From: Candidatus Latescibacterota bacterium | GTDB lineage: Bacteria > Krumholzibacteriota > Krumholzibacteriia > WVZY01 | DNA: 64,000 bases | Assembly (NCBI GenBank): GCA_963791045.1 | Contig: CAWBQK010000006.1 | Span: 32,001-96,000 of the forward strand | Reading direction: 5' to 3' | Shown here: piece by piece, positions 10,051 to 32,210 of the stretch | Layout of the letters: each line of letters begins with the position of its first letter | Position numbering within the stretch: the first letter of the stretch is position 1 | Position numbers and translations under genes: made by a program | The notes under the pieces: model-generated | Told to the model about the DNA's origin: nothing | What the model saw: the letters and a program-made list of their open reading frames with translations, nothing else | Databases searched by the model: none

Positions 10051-10926
10051 GTGGATAAACTTATTCATACATTTTCCATCGTTGCTTTCGATCCCCATAA
10101 AAGTGAGTGGGGAGTTGCAGTCCAGTCTAAATTTTTAGCCGCAGCGGCAGTTGTATCCTGGGCCAGGGCAAACGCCGGTGCTGTCGCCACTCAATCCTAT
10201 GCAAATGTAACGTACGGTTTCCGGGGATTGGAGCTGATGCAGGAAGGTTTATCAGCAGAAGAAACTATTCAACAGCTAATTAACAACGATGAGAATAAAG
10301 ACCAAAGACAAGTAGGCGTTGTTGATAAAGACGGGAAGGCTGCTTCTTTCACTGGAAAAGAATGCCATGATTGGGCCGGGCATATCGTAGGAGAAGGATA
10401 TGCCTGCCAGGGGAATATCCTGGTGCCAGGCACAGTTGAGGCTATGGCTCAAAAATTCGAAGAAGCACGTTGTGGAGATGGGGAGCTGGCGGATTGGTTG
10501 GTCTCAGCCCTTGAAGCAGGACAGGAAGCTGGCGGAGACAAAAGGGGCCGGCAGGCAGCTGGATTGCTGGTAGTAAGAGAGAAGGGAGGGTACGGAGGAG
10601 ATAATGACCGCTACCTCGATTTACGTGTAGATGATCACCCTTATCCAATTCTCAAGTTAAGACAGCTTACCGAGAATCACCATTTATTTTTTGGTGATGT
10701 GGATCCTGCAGATCTGGTTCCTCTTGATAGTGTTGTCCGGGAACTGCAAGGGATCATGAAAAAAACTGGCCACTTTAAAGATGAGAAAAACGGATTGATC
10801 AGTGAAGCTACTATCACAGCTTTAAAGGCTCTGGTTGGAGAAGAAAACCTTGAAGAACGTTGGAAAGGTGATGAAAATTTGATCGATAATAAAGTTGTCG
10901 AGTATTTAAGAGAGAAATTTTCTTGA
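10051..10926 (+). CDS. DUF1028 family Ntn-hydrolase-like protein with short C-terminal putative peptidoglycan-binding domain
   Basis: HTFSIVA...GVAVQSKFLA...GAVATQS...QGNIL...GGDKRGRQAA...DLRVDDH motifs. Confidence 0.88.
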   Translation: MDKLIHTFSIVAFDPHKSEWGVAVQSKFLAAAAVVSWARANAGAVATQSYANVTYGFRGLELMQEGLSAEETIQQLINNDENKDQRQVGVVDKDGKAASFTGKECHDWAGHIVGEGYACQGNILVPGTVEAMAQKFEEARCGDGELADWLVSALEAGQEAGGDKRGRQAAGLLVVREKGGYGGDNDRYLDLRVDDHPYPILKLRQLTENHHLFFGDVDPADLVPLDSVVRELQGIMKKTGHFKDEKNGLISEATITALKALVGEENLEERWKGDENLIDNKVVEYLREKFS

Positions 10927-10951
10927 CACGTTATGTATATGATGTTAGGAT
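10923..10951 (+). promoter_or_regulatory. Sigma70-type promoter
   Basis: TTGACA (10923-10928), 17-nt spacer, TAGGAT (10946-10951), with extended -10 TG at 10943-10944. Confidence 0.75.
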
Positions 10952-10966
10952 TTATGGCATGAATAT

Positions 10967-11089
10967 TTATTGTCTGCGTACACCTCATCATAAGTCTATG
11001 ATAAATCTCCTCTGACCGGAGACGGTGTGTGCATACAATAACCCGTCATTTTTCAACAAGGCATCCCCGGTCGAATCCGGGGATTTTTT
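10967..11089 (+). ncRNA. Candidate structured leader RNA (riboswitch/attenuator) or sRNA: three-way junction plus intrinsic terminator
   Basis: P1 10967-10984 pairs with 11024-11041 (one mismatch, two G-U); P2 ATCATA-agtc-TATGAT; P3 TCTCC-tctgacc-GGAGA; terminator ATCCCCGG-tcgaat-CCGGGGAT plus T-run at 11063-11089. Confidence 0.6.
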
Positions 11090-11195
11090 GTTCTATGGAA
11101 ACAAAAGGAGGATAGAAAAGAAAATATAAGGAGGCAAAATTGGTATATAATGAAGATGTTCTAGACCCATCCATTAACCTTAAGGAGGAATTAGT

Positions 11196-12998
11196 ATGAA
11201 GAAGCTATCTGTTCTATTGGTTTTTCTACTTATTACCGGGGTTCTTCTTGGAGCTTGCGCTCCAGCAGAAGAACCAGTAGTAGTAGATGAGCCTGTCGTA
11301 GTAGAAGACACATTTTTGGCCTGTCAGGTCACCGACGTCGGCGGCATTGACGACAAATCTTTCAACGCCACTGCCTGGAAAGGCATGGAAGACGCCGTTG
11401 CAGACCTCGGCATTGAAGCCAAATACCTCGAATCCCAACAGCAGACTGATTATGAAGCCAACATCAACGCTTTCCTCGAGGAAGGCTGCGATTTGATCAT
11501 GGCCGTCGGCTTCCTGCTGGGTGATGCCACAGCCGCAGCTGCTGGCGCGAACCCCGACCAGGCCTTTGGCATTGTTGATGTCGACTATCTGGCGTCAGAC
11601 AATCTGTATGGCTCCGGGTTTGCAGTCAATGAGTCCGCCTTCATGGCTGGCTACCTGGCTGCTGGTATGACTGAGACCGGCATTGTTGCCACCTACGGCG
11701 GCATCAATATTCCACCCGTTGCCATCTTCATGGACGGCTTTGTATTGGGTGTTGAATACTACAATGAAGTTAACGGAACAGCAGTAGAGGCTCTGGGCTG
11801 GGATCCTGCAGCACAGGACGGACTCTTTGCAGGGAACTTCGAAAGCACCGATGACGGCCGCACCCTGGGCGAATCTCTGCTGGACGAAGGCGCAGACATC
11901 ATCATGCCTGTCGCTGGTCCTGTAGGTGCTGGAACCATCGCAGTTCTGGAAGAGCGCGGCACCGGTATGGTTATCGGTGTTGACAATGATTGGTCCGTAC
12001 AGTATGCCAATCAGTCCGATATGATTTTGGCCAGTGTTCTGAAGAATATGGACGTTTATGTCTATGAGACCATTCAGGCTGTTATGGATGGATCCTTCGC
12101 TGGCGGCAATTACCTGGGCACCCTTGAGAATGGTGGTGTTGGCCTGGGTTACGGCGGCGCAGAGATCCCCGCTGATCTTATGGCTGAGGTTGATGCTCTG
12201 GCAGCTGGCATTATCGCCGGTGACATTGCCACCTTACCGGTGGTAGAGGAAGTTGAAGAAGTTGCACTTCCAGACCTTGCTGGAAGAGTAGTCACAGTAG
12301 CCGTTGAAAATGCCTATCTGCCTTTTAACTACATTGATCCTGATACCGGTGAACCTGCTGGTTGGGACTATGATGTGTGGAATGAGATCTGCGCCTTGCT
12401 CAACTGCACCCCGGAATTTGTTGAAGCATCCTGGGAAGGCATGATCCAGGCCGTATCTGATGGTCAATATGACGCAGCTGGTGACGGCATCACAATTACA
12501 GAGGAAAGAGCAGAACTCGTTGACTTCTCTGTAGGATACGTTTCAATCGAACAGCGCCTGTTGGTTCGTATCGACGAGGATCGTTTTGAAACCATCGAAG
12601 ATATTGTAGCCGATGAAGATTTGAAATTGGGGACCCAGACTGGAACCACAAACTACGAAACAGCACTTAACTACCTAGCTGCTGAACGCATTCAGGCTTT
12701 TGAGCAGTTCCCGTTTGCAGTTCAAGCTTTGATTGCAGGTGACATCGATGCAGTGATGATTGACGAGGTTGCCGGTCTTGGTTACCAGGGTGCGAACGCT
12801 GATGTCTTGAAGATCATTGGACCTTCCATGTCCAGTGATGTGCTGGGATTCATTTACCCTCTGGGTAGTGACTTGGTTGAACCAGTTGATCTGGCCATTG
12901 GTGCATTAGCAACTAGTGGTAGACTTGGTGAAATCAACCAGGAATACTTTGGCCCAGACTTTGATATCACTTACGATGATTTGTTCCCCGAGGAGTAA
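11196..12998 (+). CDS. Lipoprotein fusing a BMP/PnrA-type binding domain and a polar amino acid (SBP_bac_3) binding domain
   Basis: Lipobox LLGAC; N-half GGIDDKSFN...AGYLAA...AGPVGAG...IGVDND (BMP); C-half AYLPFNY...GWDYD...ITITEERAELVDFS...GTQTGTT (family 3 SBP). Confidence 0.9.
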   Translation: MKKLSVLLVFLLITGVLLGACAPAEEPVVVDEPVVVEDTFLACQVTDVGGIDDKSFNATAWKGMEDAVADLGIEAKYLESQQQTDYEANINAFLEEGCDLIMAVGFLLGDATAAAAGANPDQAFGIVDVDYLASDNLYGSGFAVNESAFMAGYLAAGMTETGIVATYGGINIPPVAIFMDGFVLGVEYYNEVNGTAVEALGWDPAAQDGLFAGNFESTDDGRTLGESLLDEGADIIMPVAGPVGAGTIAVLEERGTGMVIGVDNDWSVQYANQSDMILASVLKNMDVYVYETIQAVMDGSFAGGNYLGTLENGGVGLGYGGAEIPADLMAEVDALAAGIIAGDIATLPVVEEVEEVALPDLAGRVVTVAVENAYLPFNYIDPDTGEPAGWDYDVWNEICALLNCTPEFVEASWEGMIQAVSDGQYDAAGDGITITEERAELVDFSVGYVSIEQRLLVRIDEDRFETIEDIVADEDLKLGTQTGTTNYETALNYLAAERIQAFEQFPFAVQALIAGDIDAVMIDEVAGLGYQGANADVLKIIGPSMSSDVLGFIYPLGSDLVEPVDLAIGALATSGRLGEINQEYFGPDFDITYDDLFPEE

Positions 12999-13037: not shown

Positions 13038-13074
13038 AAACGGTGTGTGGGGATTATTTTCCCACACACCGTTT
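13038..13074 (+). promoter_or_regulatory. Intercistronic 14-bp stem-loop after the binding-protein gene
   Basis: AAACGGTGTGTGGG-N9-CCCACACACCGTTT. Confidence 0.65.
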
Positions 13075-13097
13075 CTAATATATCGAAGGAGCGGACA

Positions 13098-13965
13098 GTG
13101 ACTGATCAGCCTCAAGCTATAAAACCAATTATTGAAATTGAGGATTTTTCCTCAAAGAGAAAGTTTCGCGATCTCCCGTGGTGGTTTTTTGCTATTATTT
13201 TGATCGCTATTTATGCATTCATAGTCATTTCAACAAACGAAGAATACAACAGCGCGTTTAATTTTGATTAAGAAGGGTTTGGTAATTACGGTAAAAACTA
13301 CCTTGATAGCGTATGGTCTTGCTATCTTGTTCGGGTTGCTGGCTGGACTTGGCCGTATTTCAAAAAATGTAGTAGTAAATAATTTGGCCAGGCTTTATGT
13401 GGAATTAATCAGAGGTATACCTATCCTGGTATTGATATTTTTCATTGCTTTGGTCGGTGTCCCAGTTCTGGTTGATAGTATTAATAATTTTGGATTCTGG
13501 TTATCTGACCAGGGGTTGAGTTTCTTGGGGAAGATATTTACTGCAGTTACAAATCAGGATATACCCATGAACTCCAGGGCGATAATTGCACTGGCGGTAA
13601 CCTATGGAGCATATCTGGCAGAAATATTCCGGGCTGGAATTCAATCAATAGCCAGAGGTCAGATGGAAGCTGCCAGATCATTAGGTATGAGTTATGGTCA
13701 AGCAATGCGTTATGTCATTTTGCCCCAGGCTGTACGGAATGTCCTGCCCGCACTGGGAAATGACTTTGTGGCAATGGTGAAAGATTCCTCTCTGGTGTCT
13801 GTACTTGCGGTCAGAGACATCACTCAAGTCTCGAGATTATATGCTGGAAGCACCTTTCGTTTTAGGGAATCCTACGTAACCCTCGCTGTGATGTATCTGA
13901 CCATGACAGTTGTTTTGTCTTTAGTAGTACAGTTCATAGAAAGGCGGTTAAAAACCCATGACTGA
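13098..13965 (+). CDS. Polar amino acid ABC transporter permease (frameshift near 13262)
   Basis: YVELIRGIPIL, AYLAEIFRAGIQSIARGQMEAARSLGMS (EAA loop), KDSSLVS; GTG start after AAGGAG. Confidence 0.92.
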
Positions 13966-14705
13966 TCAAGACTACATTATTCAAGTTAAGGATCTGTATA
14001 AATATTTCGGCGATATAAAAGCTGTTGATGGTGTATCACTTGAATATCGGTCGCGGAAAAGTGGTAGTTGTAATTGGACCTAGCGGCTCTGGAAAATCCA
14101 CTCTTCTACGGTGCATTAATCACCTGGAAGAACCTACGAGTGGGGAGATATGGGTCGATGGCGAACGAGTTACAAAAGAAGCAAAAATAATAAATGAGAT
14201 CCGGGCAGAGATCGGAATGGTTTTTCAATTATTCAATCTCTTTCCGCATTTGACAGCCGTTGAAAATGTTACCTTGGCCCAAAAGATCATCCGGGGCAGA
14301 TCCCAGGATGAAGCTGTTGAAATAGCCATGGAAAAATTGAAGAGGGTAGGCATACCTGAAAAAGCTGATTCATATCCATCTAATTTATCTGGTGGCCAGC
14401 AGCAGCGAGTGGCAATTGCCCGGGCTCTGGCGATGGATCCTAAGATCATGCTGTTTGATGAACCCACCAGCGCCCTCGATCCTGAAATGATCAAGGAAGT
14501 GTTGGATGTCATGCTTGATCTTGCCCAGGAAGGTATGACCATGGTTTGTGTGTCCCACGAAATGGGCTTTGTCCGTTCTGCGGCTGATGAGGTTGTTTTT
14601 ATGGATTTTGGTAGAGTTGTGGAGCATACAACACCGGATGGATTGTTCAATAATCCCCAGAATGACCGGACAAAATTATTCCTGAGCCAGATTCTGGAAC
14701 ATTAA
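13958..14705 (+). CDS. Polar amino acid ABC transporter ATP-binding protein, GlnQ-like (frameshift near 14040)
   Basis: GPSGSGKST, MVFQLFNLFPH, LSGGQQQRVAIARAL, FDEPTSALDPE; ATG 13958 overlaps the permease end. Confidence 0.93.
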
Positions 14706-14740: not shown

Positions 14741-15469
14741 ATGGAAAGAAATGATGGACGTGCGTTTGATCAGCTCCGTCCTGTAAGCATTGTCCCGGAT
14801 TATGTTGATTTCCCGGAAGGATCAATATTGATCTCTATCGGGAAAACTCGCGTGTTGTGCAATGTTAGTGTTGAAAATAACGTACCCGCCTGGATGGATC
14901 AGGAAGGATCAACGCAAGGATGGATAACTGCAGAGTATGCACTTCTGCCGCGTTCAACGTCAACCAGGGTAATGAGAGAAACCCGGGGGCTGAGCGGCCG
15001 AACTCAGGAAATAAAAAGAATAATTGGACGATCATTAAGAGCTGCGTTTAACCTGGATCTGATTGGGAAGAGGACCATGATCGTTGATTGTGATGTTATC
15101 CAGGCAGATGGAGGGACCAGAACTGCTGCCATAACCGGTGGATATGCCGCCCTTTCAATAGCCATTCAAACACTTGTCGATATGAATGAAATTCCAGGTG
15201 AAGTTTTTCTTTCTCCCGTGGCTGCCATTAGTGTTGGGCTGGTAGAAGGTCAACCGGTACTGGATCTGAATTACAGCGAGGATTCCCGGGCTGAAGCAGA
15301 TCTGAATATAATAATGAATCTTGACGGAGAATTTATTGAAGTCCAGGGAACAGGGGAAGGGGCAACTTTCTCAAGGGATACATTGGATGCGTTGTTGGAC
15401 CTCTCTGCTACAGGCATCCAGGATCTTTTTTTAGTTCAAAAACCCTGGCACTATTCTGAAAAGGATTGA
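14741..15469 (+). CDS. rph: Ribonuclease PH
   Basis: RNDGR...LRPV, GWITAEYALLPRST, GRTQEIKRIIGRSLR, DCDVIQADGGTRTAAITG. Confidence 0.96.
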   Translation: MERNDGRAFDQLRPVSIVPDYVDFPEGSILISIGKTRVLCNVSVENNVPAWMDQEGSTQGWITAEYALLPRSTSTRVMRETRGLSGRTQEIKRIIGRSLRAAFNLDLIGKRTMIVDCDVIQADGGTRTAAITGGYAALSIAIQTLVDMNEIPGEVFLSPVAAISVGLVEGQPVLDLNYSEDSRAEADLNIIMNLDGEFIEVQGTGEGATFSRDTLDALLDLSATGIQDLFLVQKPWHYSEKD

Positions 15470-18061: not shown

Positions 18062-19528
18062 TTAAGGATAGCCAGGCAGAGGAGGTAGTAGATCCATTCC
18101 CTCCGATCGAGCAGCTTGGGTAGTGATCTTTTTCAACTCAATTTGTACGTCGGGATGTAATGCTGGCGCTGGAGCAGATCCAAGTAATTCCTGGCGGAGA
18201 TCTTTGGCCCTGGACCAGGCAGATTTGGAATACCCTTGATCGGCTGGATCAAGTGGTTGGCGATCTATAACCAAAGAGGGATAATGGTTTTCTTCCTTAA
18301 ACCATTTAAACGTATGCTCAGAGGAGATGAAATCCCCCTTATGTCCAACTTCCCTGATGAGATCAACAGCGAGGGGATTTTCGCGAAATTGGATTCCCTG
18401 CGAGAAATGCTTGATAGAAGCGATCATTTCAGAGTCCAGTATTAACTTTTCGGGACTTTGGCTGTTCTCGTAAGCTAGCATTCCAGCACCAGAGATCAAA
18501 TTTGTGCCTGCCATGGATCCGAGCAATGCACCGGTTGCGGACTCCATACCTGCCTGTGCATCAACAATCTTTGCATCCGAAATTCCCAGATAGGCCTGGG
18601 TTGGCAGACCGAGTGATCTGCCAATTTGCACATAGGCAGCAGCAATTAACCAGGTTCCAGAGGAGCCCATTGGCGGTGTACTGTGTTTCATATCAAATAC
18701 TGCTGCCGATCCTCCCCAAACAATCTTAGCTCCTTTTTTGGCTAACTGAGCAATGACAATCCCGCTCAGGCATTCTGCTGCATGCTGTACAATTGTGCCA
18801 GCAAGCGTGACAGGGGAGGTGGCTCCAGCCATGGGCATTGATACTATCTGGATTGGTATCCCAGAACGAGCATTATCAAGAAGGTTCTGGCAGCTTGTAT
18901 TGCTCCACTCTAAGGGAGAAGTTGGACAAATATCGAATATTGCCAGTGGTTTGTCTAAAAGCCTCTGCTCACCACCAACAGCCGTTACCAATAATTCTTT
19001 CATTATTTTCCAGCTTTTGTTACGAAATATGCCAGTAACAATTGGTTTTGTCATATAACAAAGGGCAATATAGAGGCGGTAAAGATCTTGGATTGACTCA
19101 GGAACATCACTGGGAACCATGGCAGTACTTTGGGCATCAATAGCCGGTATAGATTCCACAAGCTGAATATATTGGACAAGGTCATTTGTGAGTACTTTAC
19201 GGGTTCTCTGGGTGTGGGAATCCAAGATGTATAAGGTTGAAGATCCTGGAGTGTAGAATGTCAGATCGCTGCCGTATCGAACTGCAGGATCACCCTTAAG
19301 ACTATAGAGGGAGAATTCCTTGGGGCAGCTTGCCAGTGCGTTGTGGATGAGTCCTTCCGGAATTGAGACTGCCATTGAATTAGGATTTACCTTGGCGCCT
19401 GCATCTGATAAGAGTTTGACTCCTTCTGGATTTGAGACGATAACCCCGGGATCATCCAGGAGTTGTATTGCCTCATGGATGATCGTCTTTTCCTCTTCTG
19501 CTGTTAGCACTTGTAGCAATGGTTTCAT
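18062..19528 (-). CDS. Trimethylamine methyltransferase (MttB) superfamily protein, non-pyrrolysine
   Basis: SPL...MAGATSPVTLAGTIVQHAAECLSG...DAQAGMES...AGTNLISGAGML; uninterrupted 488-aa ORF with no amber codon. Confidence 0.9.
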   Translation of the reverse strand: MKPLLQVLTAEEEKTIIHEAIQLLDDPGVIVSNPEGVKLLSDAGAKVNPNSMAVSIPEGLIHNALASCPKEFSLYSLKGDPAVRYGSDLTFYTPGSSTLYILDSHTQRTRKVLTNDLVQYIQLVESIPAIDAQSTAMVPSDVPESIQDLYRLYIALCYMTKPIVTGIFRNKSWKIMKELLVTAVGGEQRLLDKPLAIFDICPTSPLEWSNTSCQNLLDNARSGIPIQIVSMPMAGATSPVTLAGTIVQHAAECLSGIVIAQLAKKGAKIVWGGSAAVFDMKHSTPPMGSSGTWLIAAAYVQIGRSLGLPTQAYLGISDAKIVDAQAGMESATGALLGSMAGTNLISGAGMLAYENSQSPEKLILDSEMIASIKHFSQGIQFRENPLAVDLIREVGHKGDFISSEHTFKWFKEENHYPSLVIDRQPLDPADQGYSKSAWSRAKDLRQELLGSAPAPALHPDVQIELKKITTQAARSEGMDLLPPLPGYP

Positions 19529-31183: not shown

Positions 31184-32210
31184 ATGTTGAAAACATCTGA
31201 TTTTTCTTATGATTTACCGAAAGAATATATTGCCCAGCATCCCGTTTATCCCCGGGATTCTTCCAGGTTGCTGGTCTATAACCGGGAACAGGAGACGGTT
31301 GCTCACTATCGTTTTCACCAACTTGTAGATCTGCTGCGGGAAAATGATCTCCTTGTGATCAATCAAACCCGGGTGATCCAGGCTCGCTTATTTGGCAAAA
31401 AAATACCAACTGGAGGAAAAGCAGAGCTTCTGCTTCTGCGGGCGTTAAAGAAGGATGTATGGGAAGCATTGGTTGGTGGTAAAGGGATCAGGCCAGGTAT
31501 TACAGATTCAGATTGATAATGGTCCGGAGGTTCATGTTGAGGAAGACCTGGGAGGATCTTTAAGGAAGATCAGATTCCTTGATCCGATCGAGCCAATACT
31601 TGATCTGATCGGGCACGTACCTCTGCCTCCCTATATCCATGAACATCTTGATCAACCCGAGCGCTATCAGACAGTATATGCCAGGGAATCCGGTTCAGCA
31701 GCAGCTCCAACAGCTGGCTTACACTTTACACCAACTCTAATTGAAAGCATCCAACAAAAAGGGATCCAGCTTGCAAAAGTCACATTGCATATCGGCCTGG
31801 ATACCTTTGCCCCTGTGCATGAAGATGACCCCAAGGATCACAAGATACATCAGGAATGGTGTCATGTTTCAGAAGAGACCGCCGCCCAGATCAATCAAAC
31901 GAGAAAATCCGGGGGAAGGATCATCGCTGTGGGGACAACATCGGTAAGGACATTGGAAACAGCTGCCAGGAATAGTGATTTGGGGGTTGGCATTGCTCCT
32001 TTCAAAGGGAAAACCGATCTATTCATCCTGCCTGGGTTTGAGTTCCAGGTTGTTGACAGCATGCTGACTAACTTTCACCTTCCTGAATCGACCTTAGTGA
32101 TGATGGTCAGCGCTTTTACCGGCAGGGAAAAGATCCTTGAGATCTACCAACTGGCTATGAAAGAAGGATATCGATTTTACTCATTTGGAGATGCAATGCT
32201 GCTGGAGTAA
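31184..32210 (+). CDS. queA: S-adenosylmethionine:tRNA ribosyltransferase-isomerase (frameshift near 31500)
   Basis: DFSYDLP...IAQHP, PLPPYI, YQTVYA, AAPTAGLHFT, VGTTSVRTLE, TNFHLPES, YRFYSFGDAM. Confidence 0.96.

Follow-up and report, generated by a model that had tools for sequence, protein, structure and literature searches.

A promoter-to-terminator element at positions 10923-11089 of the 64,000-nt window analyzed here (positions 32,001 to 96,000 of contig CAWBQK010000006.1; features are given in window coordinates and lie on the forward strand unless marked otherwise) very likely acts as a transcription attenuator of the ribosome-mediated (leader-peptide) kind, built of the classical four segments, read from an apparently leaderless message and controlling an ABC transporter of the polar amino-acid type, probably one for His or basic amino acids. 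The first-pass annotation of this DNA had proposed a ligand-sensing riboswitch. Its outline stands: the element is a conserved cis-regulator that has its own promoter and an intrinsic terminator opposed by a mutually exclusive antiterminator, and both pairings covary among relatives. The ligand-sensing part is not supported: the supposed aptamer consists of a conserved, apparently leaderless open reading frame (ORF) and an antiterminator strand, and relatives located upstream of hisG carry runs of His codons. A false riboswitch candidate is thus replaced by a testable mechanism. The case also illustrates a general trap, in that leaderless sensory short ORFs (sORFs) inside well-folded leaders can be mistaken for aptamers.

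In the proposed mechanism, transcription from promoter P1 would begin on or beside the ATG that opens an 18-codon leader ORF. If no ribosome were present on the leader, the antiterminator strands GACCGG and GACGG (together, segment 2) would be locked in helices P1 and P3; if a ribosome reached the stop codon (TGA, 11013-15), it would cover segment 2 while terminating. With segment 2 unavailable, the terminator at 11063-11089 would form and a transcript of ~130 nt would be released. A shortage of charged tRNA, most likely tRNA-His and possibly tRNA-Arg or tRNA-Lys, would instead stall the ribosome on codons 7-12, melting helix P1. Segment 2, now free, would pair with CCGTC and the terminator 5' arm while the 3' arm has yet to be transcribed. 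RNA polymerase would then read through into the operon encoding a Bmp-SBP3 binding protein, a permease, and an ATPase, and amino-acid uptake would rise. We therefore propose that the operon takes up His or basic amino acids and is induced when charged tRNA-His, perhaps also charged tRNA-Arg or tRNA-Lys, runs short. Translation of the leader, ribosome stalling, and the identity of the sensed amino acid are what we infer from the sequence, and whether His is the main signal is close to an even call.

Relatives were collected by protein-guided scans of genome and metagenome contigs, which yielded 160 loci (L numbers below). A blastn comparison of window positions 10900-11200 with these loci showed the whole intergenic region to be kept at 71-82% identity in about a dozen, with the promoter, a nearly invariant block CTCCYCTGACCGGAG, the terminator, an AAGGAGG motif, and a TATAAT box as the conserved blocks of the alignment. 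In addition, a covariance model (R2) was run on 151 genomes of the order of G151, an Anaerolineales-labelled metagenome-assembled genome (MAG), and at E ≤ 0.01 gave 27 matches spread over 23 genomes. We inspected these and accepted 16, from 15 genomes, in which a promoter and a leaderless sORF are accompanied by the stop/antiterminator context; six of the 16 precede hisG. The other 11, from 8 genomes, were dropped as bare terminators lacking the context of promoter, ATG, and CTGACCGG, as was locus L177.

Promoter P1 (10923-10951) combines a -35 box TTGACA (10923-10928), a 17-nt spacer ending in TG-T (TG at 10943-44), and a -10 box TAGGAT (10946-10951). A promoter scan scored 10 of 12 consensus positions and a TG extension, in agreement with the near-consensus promoter annotated earlier. 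The same -35/-10 layout recurred in 32 of 34 family members when searched by regular expression (a TTGAC-type -35 box and a TANNNT -10 box, with 6-10 nt from the end of the -10 box to the ATG, exactly 7 nt in 15 members), and the remaining two, judged by eye from printed strings, fit if an upstream in-frame ATG is used. The upstream neighbor, a DUF1028 + PG_binding_2 gene, ends at 10926, within the -35 box; this box is retained in L102 and L130 although the stop codon of the upstream gene lies elsewhere in those loci. In the window, the leader ATG stands 7 nt past the -10 box. Because this gap leaves no room for a Shine-Dalgarno sequence, we infer a leaderless mRNA, with a transcript start at or beside the ATG as judged from the position of the -10 box.

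The leader ORF (10959-11015) encodes MNIYCLRTPHHKSMINLL in 18 codons, from ATG 10959 to the TGA at 11013-15 inside the loop CTGACC. Open frames of 16-24 codons begin at the aligned ATG in 20 of 22 distinct relatives (seven loci with cores identical to others, and L158, one base from L066, were left out of these counts). Internal stops are absent from frame 0 across the 20 ORFs and number 27 and 13 in the other two frames, while His, Arg, and Lys account for 111 of 358 residues (31%) as against ~8% in the other frames. The sole indel among the eight closest sequences is 3 nt long and falls within the leader ORF, and a G-to-A change in the loop of L102 converts the leader stop from TGA to TAA. 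The proposed main stall site is a pair of tandem His codons, CAT CAT (codons 10-11; 10986-10991), beside Arg codon 7 (10977-79) and Lys codon 12 (10992-94); the corresponding columns of the peptide alignment are rich in His, Arg, Met, or Pro in all members, and the His runs of the hisG-linked relatives fall at the equivalent position. The two elements without an ATG appear decayed: L026:2548-2686 has no recognizable promoter and L072:2764-2902 no stable fold (z = 0.47), with the TATAAT box and the 5' untranslated region of the transporter gene still retained in L072.

The strongest argument for a ribosome-read family is the apparent match between leader codons and the gene that follows. Among 20 downstream proteins scanned, 11 were SBP_bac_3 proteins (alone, doubled, or fused to Bmp) and six were HisG, the others being one Bmp (cut off at the locus end), one SBP_bac_1, and one aminotransferase behind a Thr/Met-rich leader. 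All six HisG leaders have 3-5 consecutive His residues in frame with the leaderless ATG: HHHHH in L187 and L188, HHHH in L199, and HHH in L191, L195, and L196. The hisG leader of L191 (MKTNFCTPHHHNKPSA, with its stop inside CTGACCGG) shares TPHH and the stop context with the window (..TPHHK..). The Rfam models His_leader (RF00514) and T-box gave no match in eight related loci, including the six hisG leaders (E ≤ 1), or in the window. One shared architecture links a putative hisG attenuator with one of amino-acid uptake.

Two further observations concern the leaders of these relatives. The element at L193:63-210 (+) has the same architecture and a leaderless, Thr- and Met-rich leader (MSKRMNSDVNTTTTMMTNPLFPG); the downstream ORF (331-1626) encodes a class I/II aminotransferase, and the element may be a Thr/Met-responsive attenuator. 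Several distant loci show, by eye, a second short ORF after the terminator (L141 at ~2680-2715, L095 at ~2560-2600, and L090/L086), with products such as MNKNNNRSPP and MMKKESRSPPRN, each followed by a stop codon, and a common CGCAGTCCRCC (R-S-P-P). These may be second sensory or stalling sORFs.

Covariation supports the antiterminator as well as the terminator state. The 5' strands of the antiterminator form segment 2 (11014-11025), with GACCGG (11014-19) in helix A and GACGG (11021-25) in helix B. The 3' strand of helix A is segment 3 (CCGGTC, 11067-72), and that of helix B is CCGTC (11043-11047). Both pairings had been noted earlier as sequence complementarities, the first as a mutually exclusive antiterminator and the second as an alternative pairing, and the covariation check on orthologous upstream regions bears out each of them. 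On alignment A4, helices A and B together had 88.7% of cells paired, compared with at most 61% when the strands were slid, and eight cells were changed on both sides, a count matched in 1 of 500 shuffles. Unlike the terminator state, the antiterminator state played no part in fitting the alignments. Helix A alone had 94.9% of 195 cells paired across 34 sequences (at most 61% slid). Its outer pair is GC in 18 cases, AU in three, UA in one, and GU in two, with the compensatory AU/UA pairs in four sequences: AACCGG/CCGGTT in L102, L181, and L183, and TTACCGG/CCGGTAA in L130. The four central CCGG pairs are invariant and therefore uninformative either way. The 3' strand of helix B covaries with its partner, giving GACAG/CTGTC in L147 and GATGG/CCATC in L116 and L098. 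Helices A and B are mutually exclusive both with the terminator and with P1/P3, the protector helix, and both states covary.

The terminator-state fold is unusually stable. The minimum free energy (MFE) of RNA 10958-11095 is -50.2 kcal/mol; 200 dinucleotide shuffles gave -28.3 ± 3.8, and none of them equaled the native value (z = -5.79). The MFE structure is the one the first-pass annotation had drawn, an 18-position stem (10967-10984 with 11024-11041) enclosing two hairpins and, downstream of it, a GC-rich terminator of 8 bp with its T-run. The 5' strand of helix P1 (10967-10984) is segment 1 and lies inside leader codons 3-9; pairs in this helix are changed on both sides among relatives. Its 3' strand (11024-11041) would be the partner of segment 1 when the leader carries no ribosome. 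Hairpin P2 (ATCATA-AGTC-TATGAT, 10987-11002, inside codons 10-15) is weakly conserved as a structure, with only 66% of cells paired across the 34 members and a loop consensus, ATGCC, that corresponds to Met-Pro codons. Hairpin P3 (TCTCC-TCTGACC-GGAGA, 11006-11022) carries the leader stop in its loop and has 93-100% of cells paired. The intrinsic terminator (11063-11089) has the stem ATCCCCGG/CCGGGGAT (11063-70/11077-84, the second strand being segment 4), the loop TCGAAT, and a T-run to 11089, with 96-98% of cells paired among relatives. The whole fold had 84% of cells paired on A4 (18 sequences; 32-48% slid), with a covariation of 0.248 versus 0.145 in shuffles (reached by 0 of 500), and 80% on A5 (34 sequences; covariation 0.244 versus 0.131), counts that are biased toward this fold because both alignments were model-fitted to it. 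Given a plain MAFFT alignment, RNAalifold found P3 and the terminator but no other helix; P1 was missed because the in-frame indel and the longer P2 of distant members misalign it.

A kissing interaction between the P2 loop (AGTC) and GAC in the P3 loop, also suggested earlier, is possible in the window and was rejected as a feature of the family. The P2 loop varies (TGCG, AACC, or TGCC in the seven close relatives of alignment A3) while the P3 loop stays, being CTGACC throughout those seven except for TTGACC in L138.

Folds with the ribosome footprint masked, at its generally known size, follow the order of events proposed above. With the RNA masked to 11003 (second His codon in the A site) and the terminator 3' arm not yet made, the MFE structure of 11004-11076 is exactly helices A and B, at -17.6 kcal/mol. 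With the RNA masked to 11027 (ribosome at the stop codon), the terminator alone remains; the leader stop codon overlaps the first bases of helix A. In the absence of a ribosome, the fold calculations give P1, P2, and P3 ahead of segment 3 transcription, and then the terminator. Of 18 members folded with the His-codon masking, 17 formed at least four helix-A pairs; in L141, the exception, the terminator arm is paired with GGAGGCAUC instead. By geometry, the stall-competent codons of the window leader are about 2-13, which include Arg7, His10, His11, and Lys12. A search of expression runs returned only small shares (≤ 0.08) and Logan contigs, from relatives and without transcript starts or ends; one RNA-library contig among these spans about 10987-11092 and then 11163 onward, and does not show transcription.

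Several points weigh against reading the element as an attenuator. The terminator state is favored at equilibrium (-30.6 kcal/mol), and the switch must therefore be kinetic, as in classical attenuators. An ORF of ~18 codons after an ATG is not improbable by chance. Pairwise codon differences among the leaders number 1039, 1628, and 1623 at positions 1, 2, and 3, lacking the third-position excess seen under purifying selection, and the richness in His and Arg codons (CAY/CGN) overlaps the C/A-rich 5' strand of helix P1, so that composition and structure are confounded. Because of this overlap and a codon-difference pattern unlike that of a conserved protein, we read the leader peptide as a ribosome-read sensor rather than a functional protein. 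Furthermore, consecutive His codons number only two in the window leader, where they stand among Arg and Lys codons (HH, R, and K within codons 7-12), and clear runs (HHH to HHHHH) occur only in the six hisG-linked relatives. The terminator-state counts come, as noted, from alignments fitted to that structure. An invariant TATAAT box 3' of the terminator could bypass the attenuator. Lastly, the permease lies in two frames in this assembly (13098-13271, then 13264-13965). The L023 ortholog is a single 306-aa ORF (containing NDAFNFIKIGLMITVKTT), which suggests a single-base frameshift near 13262-13270 that would reflect either pseudogene formation or faulty assembly.

Among the other explanations, nascent-peptide arrest of the TnaC or SpeFL kind is the least strained, and we consider it improbable. 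On binding of a free amino acid in the exit tunnel, a basic 18-aa peptide ending in Leu-Leu or Leu-Pro before UGA would arrest its own ribosome at the stop codon or close to it, and where that ribosome sits would decide the fold. The Leu-Leu or Leu-Pro followed by UGA is indeed conserved in most close relatives, the peptide is strongly basic, and the stop codon falls within the antiterminator strand. However, the peptide is poorly conserved outside its H/R/K-rich stretch, the stop has been lost in L130, L124, L117, L181, and L184 while the element is retained, and the hisG-linked relatives have plain His-codon runs, a signature of tRNA-charging control. A ribosome held at the stop would also favor termination, and the ligand would shut down uptake only if the stall were prolonged, which is possible but needs more assumptions.

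Alternatively, the unit from promoter P1 to the terminator could be a stand-alone or dual-function small RNA (sRNA) of ~130 nt acting in trans, with the transporter driven by the TATAAT box at 11146. The unit does have its own promoter and terminator, the downstream TATAAT box is invariant and is kept in L072 despite the decayed element upstream of it, and terminated attenuator RNAs and leader peptides with functions in trans are described in Sinorhizobium. Yet amino-acid uptake or hisG genes always follow the element directly and in the same orientation, regardless of the gene before it, and a covarying antiterminator that overlaps the terminator would be useless to a pure sRNA. No candidate target came to light, though none was sought, and we consider this reading very improbable. 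The released ~130-nt RNA is possible as a by-product, since terminated attenuator RNAs exist in other bacteria.

Scarcely more can be said for a metabolite riboswitch, in which the P1-P2-P3 three-way junction would bind a nucleoside or amino acid and stabilize the terminator state. The junction is stable, P1 and P3 are conserved with covariation, and the antiterminator/terminator arrangement is of the riboswitch type as an expression platform. However, neither the junction strands nor the P2 loop is constant, and P2 itself is the poorly paired helix noted above (66% of cells). The conserved stretches are all accounted for by the ATG, codons (ATGCC being Met-Pro), the stop codon with the antiterminator strand (CTGACCGGAG, the invariant stretch that might suggest a ligand-binding core), and the terminator. 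The ATG is fixed beside the -10 box in all members, counting the two placed by eye, and the frame stays open through in-frame indels. No Rfam family matched even at E ≤ 10: at gathering scores, the whole window gave only two tRNAs and one PYLIS_3, all elsewhere, and a permissive scan of 10850-11250 gave only chance-level matches to unrelated sRNA and small nucleolar RNA models (best E = 0.82). Since the core-like positions are explained by the ORF and the antiterminator, and hisG-linked relatives bear His-codon runs, the sensor is most likely a translating ribosome rather than a metabolite pocket, and we give the riboswitch almost no weight. Least credible of all is protein-mediated antitermination (PyrR-, TRAP-, or ANTAR-like) through a regulator binding the P3 hairpin, for although the P3 loop is nearly invariant, the window has no linked regulator gene (Pfam), the ANTAR two-hexaloop layout is absent, loop conservation is explained by the stop codon and helix A, and loop changes are accompanied by terminator changes.

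Downstream of the attenuator, 106-107 nt separate the end of the T-run from the main ATG at 11196, close to the 106 nt given in the first-pass annotation. A Shine-Dalgarno-like AAGGAGG (11105-11111) just past the terminator is conserved in alignment A1 and has no start codon behind it, and no conserved ORF following it was found in the relatives. The TATAAT box (11146-11151, within TRGTWTATAAT) lies ~45 nt before the main ATG. As a conserved motif, this previously noted box is real, being invariant in 13 of 13 aligned relatives; as a promoter it fares less well, having no -35 box and not being called by the scan. It may be a second, unattenuated promoter P2. A small ORF from TTG 11141 (19 codons, ending on the main ATG) was rejected because neither its start nor its frame is conserved in the relatives. 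The attenuator could also terminate readthrough out of the upstream gene.

The regulated gene (11196-12998, behind a Shine-Dalgarno AAGGAGG at 11182-88) encodes a 600-aa lipoprotein-type substrate-binding protein fusing a Bmp/PnrA-like and an SBP_bac_3 domain (Pfam). In NCBIfam, the SBP_bac_3 domain scores highest with the Lys/Arg/Orn-binding subfamily (109.6 bits, under the 256-bit cut-off), with cystine- and Gln-binding families next, and the nearest PDB chains to the binding protein are AncCDT-1, AncQR, GlnH, and ArtJ. The leader codons offer a rare sequence-based clue to the substrate of this unusual Bmp-SBP3 fusion, namely His or basic amino acids. The permease (13098-13965) and ATPase (14025-14705) of a polar amino-acid ABC transporter follow (Pfam and NCBIfam). 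Between the binding-protein and permease genes, a strong inverted repeat (AACGGTGTGTGGG and CCCACACACCGTT, at 13041-13075) may serve as an intercistronic stabilizer or a partial terminator, fixing how much binding protein is made relative to the membrane components. Substrate-binding proteins of this lineage are modular fusions (Bmp + SBP_bac_3, SBP_bac_3 + Bmp, or two SBP_bac_3), as seen at window 11196-12998 and in L024, L095, L141, L181, and L184. Many MAGs share the SBP_bac_3 module at 75-80% identity (6335 matches at E ≤ 1e-20 among 8000 scored), and the Bmp-SBP3 family is very widespread in uncultured Anaerolineae. Farther along the window, the PYLIS_3 match (18484-18583; 43 bits versus a gathering score of 38) falls inside an MttB-family methyltransferase ORF (18062-19528, minus strand, 488 aa) without an in-frame TAG. 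This ORF looks like a non-pyrrolysine MttB homolog, and the match probably reflects gene homology.

The host of the attenuator is a Chloroflexota (Anaerolineae-type) bacterium. The source genome bin (G000) looks chimeric, with a contamination estimate of 5.8%. RNase PH encoded in the window (14741-15469) is 82-86% identical to that of the Anaerolineales-labelled MAGs G151 and G152 and 50-55% identical to that of the assigned relatives of the bin, and a second RNase PH, of the assigned relatives' type, lies on contig C13 of the same bin. Neither the window DNA nor the 600-aa protein was found in the assigned relatives, and R2 matched only 2 of 151 of their genomes, one match being a bare terminator. 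The assigned relatives yielded nothing useful because the bin is chimeric, and re-centering the search on G151 worked. More broadly, one might suspect, though we hold it doubtful, that a single homologous and mobile cassette (leaderless promoter, basic/His sORF, CTGACCGG stop-antiterminator, and CCCCGGT terminator) has been redeployed in Anaerolineae-type Chloroflexota before hisG and varied substrate-binding-protein fusions, the copies together making up a "ribulon" through which ribosomes sense more than one basic amino acid (His, Arg, and Lys) simultaneously, and that its ~130-nt terminated RNA or basic peptide may act in trans.

The kind of mechanism, his/trp-like attenuation, is already known, while the window element lies outside any Rfam leader family. 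In the accessible part of PMC9413887, which summarizes the enterobacterial his, trp, leu, thr, and phe leader attenuators, a short ORF with regulatory codons precedes alternative helices. Like E. coli and Salmonella hisL and the trp, leu, thr, and phe leaders, the window element has a short leader ORF, with putative regulatory codons, and the 1:2, 2:3, and 3:4 helices. An intrinsic terminator likewise precedes its first structural gene, and the position of its stop codon would let a terminating ribosome cover segment 2. Unlike hisL-type attenuators, it shows no sequence or Rfam relationship to them (neither RF00514 nor any other family matched), its leader is apparently leaderless, has no Shine-Dalgarno sequence, and contains only two His codons mixed with Arg and Lys, its target is an uptake ABC transporter, and its host belongs to Anaerolineae-type Chloroflexota.

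Leader-peptide attenuation is described, in the literature searched, for Proteobacteria, Actinobacteria, Firmicutes, and Deinococcus. Naville and Gautheret (2010) state, in the available part of PMC2965389, that before their Firmicutes cases leader peptides were known only in Proteobacteria and Actinobacteria. A search of full-text literature, subscription journals and supplementary tables aside, found no description in Chloroflexota, and the present element would extend the phylogenetic range of the mechanism.

The closest parallels for a leaderless sensor are in other phyla. For Deinococcus deserti, the accessible sections of PMC4007540 list 14 predicted leaderless attenuation leaders on biosynthesis and synthetase genes. 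There, as would be the case in the window if the predicted start and regulatory codons are right, the transcript begins with the AUG of a short ORF enriched in the cognate amino acid, and in that species the ORF precedes amino-acid or tRNA-synthetase genes; from what those sections describe, the window element differs in its phylum, its lack of sequence relationship, its transporter target, and its covariation support. The mycobacterial polycysteine leaderless sORFs, as outlined in the part of 10.1101/834739 that was available, likewise act as leaderless sensors in which stalling on the codons of one amino acid remodels downstream RNA, at several loci that form a "ribulon". That system, on the same partial account, unmasks a ribosome-binding site and is translational, whereas the window element has a terminator and an antiterminator and would act on transcription. 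Finally, the available portions of PMC9413887 and PMC2965389 report predicted His-codon leader attenuators in Firmicutes, with 3-5 His codons and a terminator with an alternative antiterminator. In these Firmicutes, as far as those portions describe, the attenuators sit on his biosynthesis genes or hisS/hisZ and His transporters are under T-box or HisR control, whereas in the window it is the transporter that carries the attenuator.

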